Assembly: GCA_965227515.1 (NCBI GenBank)
Contig: CBDDFZ010000001.1
Location: forward strand, 1,504,001 to 1,568,000
Direction of reading: 5' to 3'
Length of the DNA stretch: 64,000 nucleotides
DNA from: Alphaproteobacteria bacterium
GTDB lineage: Bacteria > Pseudomonadota > Alphaproteobacteria > CALKHQ01
Below, in pieces: positions 59,758-62,806 of the stretch. Every line of letters begins with the position of its first letter. Positions within the stretch are counted from its first letter, which is position 1. A model generated the notes under the pieces. The model searched no databases and was not told where the DNA came from. It worked only from the letters and a program-made list of their open reading frames with translations. Made by a program: the position numbers and the translations under genes.

Positions 59758-61893
59758 TTACCGCGTCCAGGCCGCCACGGCGTCGCGGCCGCCACGGTTT
59801 TCCATGTAGTTGACCAGCGCGCTGACGGCGGCGCGGTCGAACGCATGGTCGATGCCGGCGGTGATCTGGGCCAGCGCCTCGTCGATGGTCTTGCCGGCGC
59901 GGTGGGCGCGCGGGCTGACCATCGCGACGAAGGCATTGGCCACCGCCACGATGCGTGCTGCCGGCAGGATGGCGTCGCCGCGCAGGCCCTGCGGCAGGCC
60001 GGTGCCGTCGACGTGCTCCAGCGCCTGGCGCACGGTCTCCACCACCGGGCCGCGGAACTCGACGCCCTCGATGAAGCGGGCGCTGGCCATGATGCCCTCG
60101 CGGATCTGGCGGATCTCCTCCGGGCCCAGGTCGCGCTCCAGGGTCAACAGCTCGGACGGCACCATGATCTTGCCGAGGTTGAGCAGGCGGCCGGCGTAGG
60201 CCGCGGTCTCGACGGTGGTGTCGTCGGCGCCCATCTCCTTGGCGATCGCTTCCGCGACGTGGCCGACATGGACCGAGTGGCGGGCGGCATGGGGGTCGCG
60301 CGCGTCGATCACGGTGACCAGGGTCTCGACCAGACCGTCGAGGATGCGCTCGTTGCGCTCGCGCTCGGCCATCGCCTCGCTGATGTCTTCCTCCACCGTC
60401 AGCACGGCGCCCGGCCAGTTCGGCAGCATCGCGCCCATGGGGATATGCGCGGCCTGGTAGGTGCGGGTCTCGTCGTCCAGCACCACCTCGCGGATGGTGG
60501 TGACCACGGCGTTGGCCTCGCGGGCCTCGTCATGATGCAGTGCCAGCGCGCGCGCCTGGGCCGCCCCGAACAGGCGCGACATCGGGGCGCCGACGATGTC
60601 GGCGATCGAGGACTTCAGGCGCGTGGCCAGGGTGGCGTTGGCGAACTGGAACTGGCCCTGCTCGTCGGCGACGAACATCGACGAGGGCTGGGCATCGGTC
60701 ACCAGGCGCAGGAACCGCTCCTGCTGAGCTAGCCTGTCGGTGGTGGCCTGCAGGCGGTCCAGGGCGTGGGCCGTGCGTTGGGAGGCGCCATGGCGCCACA
60801 GCGCGAACATGCACACAGCCGCAATCGCCACCGCCAGCACCAGCAGGATCAGCAGGCGTTGCAGGCGGGCATCGCTGTCTGCCAGCGCCTCGCCGCGGTC
60901 GACCTTGTAGACCAGCGTCCACGGCGCTGCGTTGAGCGCACGGGATATGGCGAGCACGTCGACGCCGCGATAGTCGATGAACTGCCCGAAGGCGCCCGCC
61001 TCGCGAATGGCGGCGGCGGCGGCCAGGTTCTCGGTATCCGCGTCCAGGCCGAGGCCGAGCGGCGGTGTCGTGCTGTCGCCGCCGCCGCGGGTGGGCGACA
61101 GATACTCGACATTGCCATTGGCGGCGCGCACCAGCACCGTCTCCGCGGTCAGGTGCGGATCGCCCGGCTGGCGCAGCATGGAGAACACGGCCTCGTCCAG
61201 CGGCCGCAGCCCGAGCACGTAGCCGACGACGTTGTCGAGCGAGGCATCGGACTGCAGGCGAATGACCGGCGCGATGAAGCCGAACGCCACCGTGTCGTCG
61301 CTCAGTGTCAAGGCATCGACGAAGCGGGGCTCGACGAACGCGCCGTCGGCCAGCATCGGGGCCACGATCTGGGCGGGATCTCCCATCTCGCGGGTGGTGG
61401 TGACGATGTGCCCTTCCGCATCCAGCACCGCGATGCCGATCGGCGCGCGGCCCGGCACGTTGGCCTCGAAATCGAACGCCGAGGCGCGCACGAAACCGGC
61501 GCGCTCCGCCACCGATTCCAGGTAGTTGCGCAGGTAGGCGGCCTGGCCGTCGAAGTCGGCGATCTGGCTGCGGTCGCCGTTCACGTCCTCCAACTGGCTG
61601 AACAGCAGGGCGACAGAGGGGTTGTGCGCGATCTGGGCGATCTCGTCGCCTTCCTCGGCCAGCCACTGGTCGACGTCATGGGCGCGGCCGTCGGCCACCA
61701 GCGCCAGCCGGGCCTGCCAGCCCAGCAGGTCATGCTCGGCCTGGTCGCTGACGAACTGGATCGCCGCCGCCACGCCGGCCACCGCCACGATAACCAGCAG
61801 CAGCATCACGACGGCAACCTTGGTCCGTGCGCTCTTGCCGCCGCGGCGTTCCACGTCCGTCATCCACCCGTCCGCATGCGCCATTTCAGCCAT
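59758..61893 (-). CDS. membrane sensor (2 TM, Cache-like periplasmic domain, PAS) with degenerate HD-GYP domain
   Basis: Two TM helices about 320 aa apart; PAS-like segment (FQFAN); HD-GYP scaffold ARDPHAARHS..LLNLGK..EHVDGTGLPQGLRGDAILPAARIVAVANAFVAM. Confidence 0.88.
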   Translation of the reverse strand: MAEMAHADGWMTDVERRGGKSARTKVAVVMLLLVIVAVAGVAAAIQFVSDQAEHDLLGWQARLALVADGRAHDVDQWLAEEGDEIAQIAHNPSVALLFSQLEDVNGDRSQIADFDGQAAYLRNYLESVAERAGFVRASAFDFEANVPGRAPIGIAVLDAEGHIVTTTREMGDPAQIVAPMLADGAFVEPRFVDALTLSDDTVAFGFIAPVIRLQSDASLDNVVGYVLGLRPLDEAVFSMLRQPGDPHLTAETVLVRAANGNVEYLSPTRGGGDSTTPPLGLGLDADTENLAAAAAIREAGAFGQFIDYRGVDVLAISRALNAAPWTLVYKVDRGEALADSDARLQRLLILLVLAVAIAAVCMFALWRHGASQRTAHALDRLQATTDRLAQQERFLRLVTDAQPSSMFVADEQGQFQFANATLATRLKSSIADIVGAPMSRLFGAAQARALALHHDEAREANAVVTTIREVVLDDETRTYQAAHIPMGAMLPNWPGAVLTVEEDISEAMAERERNERILDGLVETLVTVIDARDPHAARHSVHVGHVAEAIAKEMGADDTTVETAAYAGRLLNLGKIMVPSELLTLERDLGPEEIRQIREGIMASARFIEGVEFRGPVVETVRQALEHVDGTGLPQGLRGDAILPAARIVAVANAFVAMVSPRAHRAGKTIDEALAQITAGIDHAFDRAAVSALVNYMENRGGRDAVAAWTR

Positions 61894-61909
61894 TCACCAT
61901 TGCCCATCT

Positions 61910-62030
61910 TTAATGTTTGTTTGAAGAAAATCTAAGCCGATTTGGTTAAGCAATGCCCAATGCAAGTAACCCGCCGCGCGCTCGGGCATCACGTCTGTGT
62001 CACGTGTCGTAATCCTCAAGCCGTTGTTAA
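61910..62030. promoter_or_regulatory. divergent promoter region with two CtrA-like boxes
   Basis: TTAA-N7-TTGA (61910-61924) and TCAA-N7-TTAA (62016-62030), each one mismatch from TTAA-N7-TTAA. Confidence 0.45.
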
Positions 62031-62164
62031 GGATCAACGCGTCATGCTGAGGCTTGGCGCGCGGAACAGCCGGATCGGCTCCGACATGCCAGGCGGGCAT
62101 GGGCGGGGCCACTGTGATTCCGGCCGCGCCGCGCAACCGAATCCGCACTGTCAGGTAGGACCAA

Positions 62165-62806
62165 ATGCGGAAGACGAGCGCCAGGATCGCTCTTGCCCTG
62201 TTGTGTCTTGTGATCGCCGGTGCGGCAACGCCCGCCGGCGCCACGACCGTGCGCCTGTTCAACACCGGCGAGACCCAAGGGTCGAACATGGCGTTCTTCC
62301 CGCAGTTCACCGACATGCTGCGCCGCTATGCCGCCGACTTGCCGAAGGCCAACGAACCGTGCAGCGGCGGGGTGTCGACGCCGTGCGTGCTGCGGCAATG
62401 GTCGGATTTCATCGTTTCGCTGCGCGGGCTGGACCGGCGCACCCAGATCGAGCGCGTCAACAGCTACATGAACGACATCGACTATGTCGAAGACAGCGCG
62501 AACTGGGGCAGCGAGGACTATTGGGCGACGCCGGTGCAGTTCTTCACCCGCGCCGGCGACTGCGAGGACTATGCGATCGCCAAGTACCTGACGCTGCGCG
62601 CGCTGGGCGTGCCGATCAGCGCCATGCGCATCGTGGTGCTACAGGACCGCAACCTGGGGCTGGCCCATGCCATCCTGGTGGTCTACGACAACGGCACGCC
62701 GCTGGTGCTGGACAACCAGATCGACCACGTGGTGGCCGCCTCGTCGATCCACCACTACCAGCCGATATATTCATTGAACGAACAGAACTGGTGGCGGCAC
62801 TACTGA
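62165..62806 (+). CDS. transglutaminase-like cysteine proteinase (BTLCP, LapG-like), secreted
   Basis: Signal peptide; D..NWGSEDYWATP, GDCEDYAIAKY (Cys), HAILVV (His) and VLDN (Asp) motifs. Confidence 0.93.
   Translation: MRKTSARIALALLCLVIAGAATPAGATTVRLFNTGETQGSNMAFFPQFTDMLRRYAADLPKANEPCSGGVSTPCVLRQWSDFIVSLRGLDRRTQIERVNSYMNDIDYVEDSANWGSEDYWATPVQFFTRAGDCEDYAIAKYLTLRALGVPISAMRIVVLQDRNLGLAHAILVVYDNGTPLVLDNQIDHVVAASSIHHYQPIYSLNEQNWWRHY

Follow-up and report, generated by a model that had tools for sequence, protein, structure and literature searches.

In Pseudomonas fluorescens, a catalytically dead enzyme of the inner membrane, LapD, serves as a receptor for cyclic-di-GMP (c-di-GMP) and controls a periplasmic cysteine protease of the BTLCP family, LapG (PMC3032545, PMC3032553, PMC4359373). 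In Pseudomonas aeruginosa, LapG is reported to cut the adhesin CdrA, which is exported by two-partner secretion (TPS), at a C-terminal TAAG, while a 'cysteine hook' anchors CdrA in CdrB (PMC13405001, PMC4694147). A comparable pair with a different receptor, DvhD (DVU1020) and DvhG (DVU1019), has been published from Desulfovibrio vulgaris Hildenborough (PNAS 2024; Nat Commun 2026; PMC10990149, PMC13090378). DvhD, the BTLCP protease DvhG and the adhesin DvhA were reconstituted in P. fluorescens, with c-di-GMP binding of 322 nM (PMC10990149). The solved structures of DvhD are described as an array of transmembrane (TM) segment, dCache, TM, PAS and HD-GYP domain in which the HD motif reads SQ and the HH motif MN; the protein did not hydrolyse c-di-GMP, and nucleotide binding splays its stalk helices (PMC13090378). 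Here we analyze a stretch of 64,000 nucleotides (the window) from an alphaproteobacterium, positions 1,504,001 to 1,568,000 of the forward strand of contig CBDDFZ010000001.1 (assembly GCA_965227515.1; 2 contigs, 5.52 Mb, 99.67% completeness). Close to its end lie two divergent genes, for a degenerate HD-GYP membrane receptor and a secreted BTLCP protease, which in our judgement probably form a switch of the DvhD/DvhG type.

The receptor gene (59758..61893, minus strand, as are all parts listed here) was delineated from its open reading frame (ORF), Pfam and structure matches, and encodes 711 amino acids in the order TM-dCache-TM-PAS-degenerate HD-GYP. Two strong hydrophobic segments, at residues about 25-47 (61753..61821; hydropathy about 26-48) and about 344-366 (60796..60864; hydropathy about 346-366), are the hydropathy peaks on either side of a periplasmic dCache domain (residues about 48-343; 60865..61752) that was recognized from an AlphaFold2 model and Foldseek. 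A cytoplasmic PAS domain follows at residues 394-488 (60430..60714; Pfam PAS_4 and alignment to the PAS part of DvhD structure 9rc0), and the degenerate HD-GYP domain at residues 524-687 (59833..60324; Pfam HD_5, alignments and residue counts over homologues). In Pfam the receptor gave HD_5 at 1e-30 (residues 524-687), PAS_4 at 5e-5 (400-488) and a weak dCache_1 at 0.086. Hydropathy, Pfam and the dCache model thus bear out the TM-periplasmic-TM-PAS architecture that a first, sequence-only reading of the window had proposed. No full-length paralogue of the receptor is present in the genome.

Each module of this protein leads back to DvhD. By sequence search, the top solved-structure match is the DvhD PAS/HD-GYP chain 9rc0 (E-value 5.9e-40, query residues 390-702) and the second the DvhD HD-GYP chain 9rbz (3.3e-33), with the cGAMP phosphodiesterase 5z7c next after the DvhD chains at 2.1e-17; a profile of nine homologues widens the gap, DvhD scoring 1.2e-74 against 1.2e-39 for the next structure. 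The periplasmic part was modelled because its sequence, even as a profile, gave no recognisable match. The AlphaFold2 model of residues 40-356, built on a 68-sequence alignment, reached a predicted local distance difference test (pLDDT) value of 91.6, and its top Foldseek match in the PDB was 9rc2, 'DvhD, periplasmic domain' (E-value 1.8e-10; template-modelling score 0.73 on the target), ahead of dCache domains of chemoreceptors and kinases. The structural alignment with 9rc2 holds 13% identity, and the nine-sequence profile missed this DvhD chain in the PDB, so that the fold search alone reached it. All three modules, dCache, PAS and HD-GYP, therefore point to one published protein. The Desulfovibrio HD-GYP analogue of LapD that the sequence-only reading had mentioned is thus real, being DvhD/DvhG, and the novelty it attached to the receptor class was overrated since this precedent was already in print.

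The HD-GYP domain has lost nearly all that a phosphodiesterase of this family requires. Alignment with 5z7c, an active enzyme, and with 9rc0 shows the HD motif replaced by L571-N572, HH by A624-L625, GYP by G632-L633-P634, and the two Asp ligands of the VADAFDA-type stretch by N653 and V656. Of the metal ligands only H539, the first His, is retained, as is the lysine of the GK motif, K575; with the exception of that first His, the protein fails the signature of active HD-GYP phosphodiesterases (H...HD...H...HH...D plus GYP). The substitutions for QHHE, GYP and VADAFDAM, and the general loss of metal ligands, had been read correctly from the letters at the outset. The substitution of LLHDIGK by LLNLGK was likewise right in substance and wrong in register, since that reading is one residue short: the stretch is R-L-L-N-L-G-K, so that H has become L and D has become N. 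We counted residues over 89 full-length homologues: the window protein itself, the 8 homologues of related genomes and a further 80 recovered by scanning species representatives. At the HD position neither His nor Asp occurs in any of the 89; M, L, I or V is followed by N in 86 and by S in 3. His at the HH position is equally absent (0/89), while N653 is kept in 88 and V or I at 656 in 87. As no homologue has His or Asp at these motifs, the substitutions are neither chance nor recent decay, and the loss of catalysis across the family is, by this alignment, ancient and selected.

These counts bear directly on the reading that the receptor has remained a working HD-GYP phosphodiesterase, with the protease a mere neighbour. 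Retention of H539 and K575 could be cited in its favour, as could the names 'c-di-GMP phosphodiesterase class II' or 'phosphohydrolase' that some sources give to relatives. However, few if any of the 89 homologues retain HD, HH or either Asp, DvhD with the same kind of replacements is reported not to hydrolyse c-di-GMP (PMC13090378), and the pairing with the protease is widely conserved, as described below. We regard an active enzyme as highly improbable.

Whether the dead domain would still bind a nucleotide can be judged against the canonical c-di-GMP contacts of DvhD in 9rbz (Y523, L577, K582, Y621, M646, R650, Y652 and E668), carried over to the receptor with a numbering offset of 12 set by the landmarks M646, R650, Y652 and P567 in the alignment. 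L577 corresponds to L589 (kept in 88/89), R650 to R662 (88/89) and M646 to M658 (M in 73 and L in 15 of 89). The aromatic contacts are more mixed: Y652 corresponds to H664, a position held by Y in 37, H in 22, F in 14 and W in 12 homologues, and Y523 to H535, held by F in 42, Y in 37 and H in 5. Of the bridging-site residues, K520 corresponds to R532 in all 89 and P567 to P579 in 78. Both arginines of the SPRAHR motif, whose retention had been noticed from the start, are near-invariant in the family (R662 in 88/89, R665 in 86/89). Nucleotide binding by the receptor is plausible, if not certain, on this pattern.

Several features of the pocket speak against a straightforward transfer from DvhD. 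Three of the eight canonical contacts are lost, K582 becoming I594, Y621 becoming L633 and E668 becoming I681; the position of Y621 is freely variable, with Tyr in 0/89, and the bridging-site R569 of DvhD corresponds to E581. E668 is the residue credited with the guanine specificity of DvhD (PMC13090378), and guanine specificity would be the weakest point of the predicted c-di-GMP binding. At the neighbouring position 680, D or E is found in 47 of the 89 homologues.

The loss of the E668 position also favours the reading that the dead domain binds another nucleotide, such as 3'3'-cGAMP or pGpG, or none, and that the receptor mainly reports a periplasmic ligand from the outside in. In line with this, the DvhD domain is reported to accept 3'3'-cGAMP as well (PMC13090378), and dCache domains are usually ligand sensors. 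Yet R662, M658, L589 and the aromatic residue or His at 664 are kept across the family, an output domain that lacks catalysis offers no obvious route for outside-in signalling, and the genome has 12 GGDEF matches, from which it follows that it makes c-di-GMP. We therefore hold this alternative to be improbable and favour c-di-GMP as the ligand.

A search of the same genome for a LapD yielded no candidate. The receptor itself lacks LapD_MoxY_N, HAMP, GGDEF and EAL domains in Pfam, and its fold is unrelated to that of LapD. A Pfam scan of the eight long GGDEF frames found no LapD-type N-terminus; the other four frames, of 196-414 aa, were left out as too short for LapD. A genome-wide search for LapD_MoxY_N gave 0 matches, but its control was silent in all 14 known genomes. 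One 644-aa degenerate GGDEF-EAL protein (L118, C2:354129-356063; C1 and C2 designate the contigs) has a LapD-like length but was rejected, having no apparent hydrophobic segments and no LapD match; its domain matches are weak (GGDEF 22 bits, EAL 35 bits), and it may be another c-di-GMP receptor.

The partner gene (62165..62806, plus strand) encodes a 213-aa secreted cysteine protease assigned to the LapG/DvhG-family BTLCPs by Pfam, structure matches and residue checks. Peptidase_C93 is found in it at 1.4e-19, and the LapG structures 4fgo (4.3e-26) and 4u65_E (2.9e-22) are matched. The intact Cys-His-Asp triad expected of a secreted BTLCP is indeed present as C133 (within GDCEDYA), H168 and D183, invariant across 68 aligned BTLCP sequences, and D132-C133-E134 sits at the position of the calcium-site motif published for DvhG, which it matches (PMC13090378). 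The N-terminus resembles a signal peptide of about residues 1-26, ending AGA. DvhG differs in carrying a membrane anchor, although most DvhG orthologues are reported to have signal peptides too (PMC13090378). Against an identification as LapG proper, the NCBIfam LapG model scores 113.4 bits with a cut-off of 320; by that model the protease is a family member and not a LapG equivalog. The gap between the divergent genes measures 271 bp (61894..62164, from the ORF coordinates), in agreement with the shared promoter region of about 270 bp first proposed. No sigma-70-type consensus site was found in 61894-62164, although such a consensus says little for this organism.

Linkage of the receptor and protease genes is conserved. 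Of 40 relatives from the same class, a small sample of mutually related genomes, 8 have a full-length receptor homologue (38-51% identity), and a BTLCP gene lies divergently upstream in 8/8, as a partial or split match in two. The two are G006 and G040, where Pfam finds no domain and a 22-bit fragment, respectively; either case could reflect a decaying protease gene or a misassembly. A scan of species representatives (one genome per species) returned 595 pattern matches, at least 523 of them encoding a receptor relative, and locus counts were made on the best 80 of these at least 523. Almost all of the 80 are titled Alphaproteobacteria, and the isolates among them include Dongia, Pacificispira, Aestuariispira, Virgifigura and one Rhodovibrionaceae strain. 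A divergent BTLCP gene is present in 67/80 loci, mostly 120-800 bp from the receptor gene. Of the 13 without one, four have less than 600 bp of upstream sequence and one has 1070 bp, leaving eight that truly lack a BTLCP in about 3.8-4 kb of upstream sequence.

Direct contact between the two proteins was approached by modelling the dCache domain and the mature protease as a complex. The prediction scored 0.49 (runs 0.48, 0.49 and 0.51) against 0.00 for the best of three controls. This mark was attained by 58/80 solved complexes and 2/110 mismatched pairs. The runs share at least 91% of contacts, with partner pLDDT of at least 85. Scores of 0.60 or less were, however, returned by only 7 of these 80 solved complexes and by both mismatches that passed. 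The result was graded 'weak support', and the modelled contact is to be taken as a mild plus only.

A second line of evidence for a protease-facing periplasmic module comes from elsewhere in the genome, which holds six BTLCP copies. A 424-aa 'headless' paralogue (C2:886831-888785, minus strand) consists of TM segment, periplasmic domain and TM segment with no cytoplasmic part, and its periplasmic domain is 24% identical to receptor residues 49-352 (E-value 2e-8). Its gene precedes another BTLCP copy in one operon, the stop codon overlapping the BTLCP start, and the same operon occurs in 3/3 other genomes of the family. It turned up in no other place: a single-protein scan gave nothing, and the only two loci from an alignment scan are on the G002 and G003 contigs that the comparison already included. 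The receptor-type periplasmic fold thus occurs twice beside a BTLCP gene, with and without a cytoplasmic sensor, which lends independent support to its role as a protease-facing module. Nucleotide receptors are absent from the neighbourhoods of the other five BTLCP copies.

Taken together, the DvhD homology of every receptor domain, the family-wide loss of ligands, the intact protease and the conserved divergent linkage are our grounds for reading the pair as an HD-GYP version of the LapD/LapG switch, as had been proposed at the outset. In the mechanism that we envisage, the cytoplasmic PAS/HD-GYP dimer of the catalytically dead 711-aa inner-membrane receptor would most likely bind c-di-GMP, and the resulting conformational change would be passed across the membrane to the periplasmic dCache domain. 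This domain would then hold or inhibit the secreted protease encoded next door. A drop in c-di-GMP would free the protease to cut surface proteins at [T/A/P]AAG-type sites. By homology we infer c-di-GMP binding, the lack of hydrolysis, contact between receptor and protease and the direction of control, and it is on homology that mechanistic claims about this pair rest. The substrate is the least certain step, for which the best candidates are four TpsA proteins with PAAG sites around a Cys pair. The switch together with these candidates makes up our best overall explanation, which we consider fairly likely.

The four giant TpsA proteins (C1:208574-215383, C1:2606049-2620355, C1:2622850-2630124 and C2:1418904-1426754; frames of 2270-4769 aa) have near-identical TPS domains and are scattered over two replicons. 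All four tails carry DLxxL(A/T)PAAG followed by a Cys-x12-13-Cys loop; three have a second L-x-PAAG about 27-34 residues from the end, where the fourth has PAGG. The background frequency of PAAG in the long frames of the genome is 2.2e-4 per residue, or about 0.014 expected per 65-residue tail, although its presence in all four represents conservation and not four independent events because the four are paralogues. These tails resemble CdrA, a TPS-secreted adhesin with a C-terminal periplasmic anchor, an AAG-type site and a Cys pair (PMC13405001, PMC4694147). They differ in that two PAAG sites flank the Cys loop in three of the four, that one TpsB would serve four TpsA genes over two replicons, that the receptor is of the DvhD type and not LapD, and that cleavage is predicted. 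On paper, the tails are good BTLCP substrates and remain candidates as such.

A search of the 40 relatives for the TpsA tail gave matches in this genome and G001 only. Seven control TpsA ends were taken from other relatives, that of G007 being dropped since the gene end was not reached. The control from the BTLCP-bearing G013 has DPAAG and a Cys pair, whereas five ends from four genomes without BTLCP have no tail combining a site with a Cys pair; one control from a genome without BTLCP has TAAG at the very end and no cysteines. In one more distant genome, SapC, BTLCP, receptor, Sel1/peptidoglycan-binding protein, TpsB and TpsA stand together on a single contig, and 6/6 TpsA tails there carry PAAG and a terminal Cys pair (eight stretches, two of them short of the tail).

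The assignment of these tails to the receptor-linked protease is where our explanation is most exposed. The genome has one TpsB gene, and a further BTLCP copy is found about 1.1 kb away from it (C2:856402-861644: TpsB, BTLCP copy, a 304-aa ORF and a Sel1/peptidoglycan-binding protein), an adjacency found in 4/4 genomes of the family, this one and three others. At the one TpsA locus inspected, TpsB is not adjacent. The BTLCP copy beside TpsB shares 54% identity with the receptor-linked one and is a separate paralogue, to which cleavage of the TpsA tails may fall instead. The segment of about 1.1 kb in which it lies is present a second time on C1 at about 3,239,000, with 98% identity over 939 bp. 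Furthermore, of the nine genomes with a receptor gene in the set of 41, six (G002, G004, G006, G028, G039 and G040) gave no match to the TPS domain, a count to be read with the caveat that fragmented assemblies can hide giant repeat genes and that G002 is a 350-contig assembly. TpsA is therefore not the general substrate of the receptor family.

These points lend weight to the reading that the switch is real and its target is not TpsA, the protease acting on some other exported AAG-type protein or a polysaccharide-export component while the separate BTLCP copy beside TpsB would serve the TpsA tails. Besides the genomes lacking a TPS match and the distinct TpsB-linked paralogue, the recurrent neighbours of the pair favour it, since they are not secretion systems: a gene for a calcineurin-like metallophosphoesterase lies 3' of the receptor gene in 44/80 loci, and about 13-15 of 80 loci have polysaccharide genes (Wzy_C, sugar transferase) beside the pair. 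In the window, the metallophosphoesterase gene is absent after the receptor and branched-chain amino-acid permease genes stand there instead. On the other side, in 2/80 loci a gene for a TpsB homologue is located some 2 kb past the receptor gene, followed in one by TpsA. The BTLCPs of these two loci group with the TpsB-linked copies of this genome (Shimodaira-Hasegawa-like approximate likelihood-ratio test, SH-aLRT, 90), in a quick, not fully searched tree whose groupings are weakly supported and from which no order of events is drawn. Nor has an alternative substrate been identified. We regard a target other than TpsA as an appreciable but lesser prospect, and cleavage of the TpsA tails by the receptor-linked copy itself as a possibility about which we remain in some doubt.

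A LapA-like adhesin exported by a type I system, as in the Dvh operon with its type I system and RTX adhesins, is not apparent here. Neither type I secretion genes nor a LapA-type adhesin flank the pair in this genome or in the 80 loci, which again weighs against a simple transfer of the known arrangement, and the four type I secretion loci of the genome are all far from any BTLCP copy. The search for adhesins with an N-terminal cleavage site was unsuccessful: frames of at least 500 aa scanned for N-terminal [TAP]AAG and RTX motifs offered no convincing LapA-like N-terminus, and most of the largest frames are free of [TAP]AAG over their first 400 residues. Two sub-threshold matches to the NCBIfam retention_LapA model were rejected as LapA-type anchors, since each is a FecR domain with a CHASE2 sensor next to it. 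A giant cadherin/RTX protein spread over two overlapping frames (C1:2073181-2086385) was also set aside, with 'PRAAG' only and no recognisable retention module before it.

Some further loci were observed in the course of this search. A 1903-aa protein with FecR, BNR, LamG and cadherin-like domains (C1:2722029-2733963), whose FecR domain weakly matches the retention_LapA model, adjoins a CHASE2 nucleotide cyclase, a type I ABC/HlyD pair and a 698-aa RTX/cadherin protein. Within the window, a 736-aa protein with Peptidase_M23 and RTX calcium-binding repeats (6521-8728, minus strand) is separated from the pair by about 50 kb. The early remark that adhesin substrates and type I systems are missing from the window is thus right for the surroundings of the pair and has to be qualified for this distant RTX/M23 protein. 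Directly downstream of the protease gene, past a GC-rich hairpin (63138-63161), comes an insertion sequence of the IS4/IS5 family (63225-63976, minus strand), whose DUF4096 and DDE transposase ORFs have a few bases in common.

Set beside its closest relatives, the locus is a variation on a known theme. It shares with DvhD the whole TM-dCache-TM-PAS-dead-HD-GYP architecture, the best match of each domain, the loss of metal ligands at the same positions (SQ and MN in DvhD, LN and AL here) and the VANAF stretch together with R650, M646 and L577; with DvhG it shares an adjoining BTLCP gene with C-H-D triad and D-C-E motif. It departs from them in the divergent arrangement of its genes, in GLP where DvhD keeps GYP, in the pocket residues lost, in the distant relationship of the periplasmic domains, and in its host, an alphaproteobacterium with six BTLCP copies. 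With LapD/LapG it has in common a homologous protease under the presumed control of a dead-enzyme c-di-GMP receptor of the inner membrane. The receptor is thus no new class, its kind being known from two papers with structures. Our literature searches brought up no description of an alphaproteobacterial DvhD-type system or of one coupled to a TPS adhesin; neither 'Alphaproteobacteria' nor 'two-partner' appears in the main text of PMC13090378, although its Fig. 9b (class-level distribution) and Supplementary Data 1 (neighbourhoods) may already include the class.

It is tempting to speculate that this lineage wired a DvhD-type switch to CdrA-like adhesins of type Vb secretion and expanded it into a small network of BTLCP proteases, receptor and headless protein, an idea that we advance tentatively and think rather unlikely to hold in full. 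If true, the network would count six proteases of the BTLCP type, a single full receptor and the headless dCache protein, which is translationally coupled to its own protease. The four adhesins, exported through a common TpsB pore, would then be held back from release by two brakes, one dependent on c-di-GMP and the other independent of it. The TpsA link and the headless dCache partner would, if true, modestly extend the Lap/Dvh paradigm. For the receptor family as a whole, the residue pattern amounts to a natural mutational map of the contacts of DvhD that can be dispensed with: metal ligands are always lost, R650, M646 and L577 are retained, and Y621 and E668 are free to vary. The public labels 'phosphohydrolase' or 'c-di-GMP phosphodiesterase' carried by relatives are probably wrong for the whole family. 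Adhesin control of the DvhD/DvhG type would accordingly not be confined to sulfate reducers, as the distribution figure of the 2026 paper already hints.

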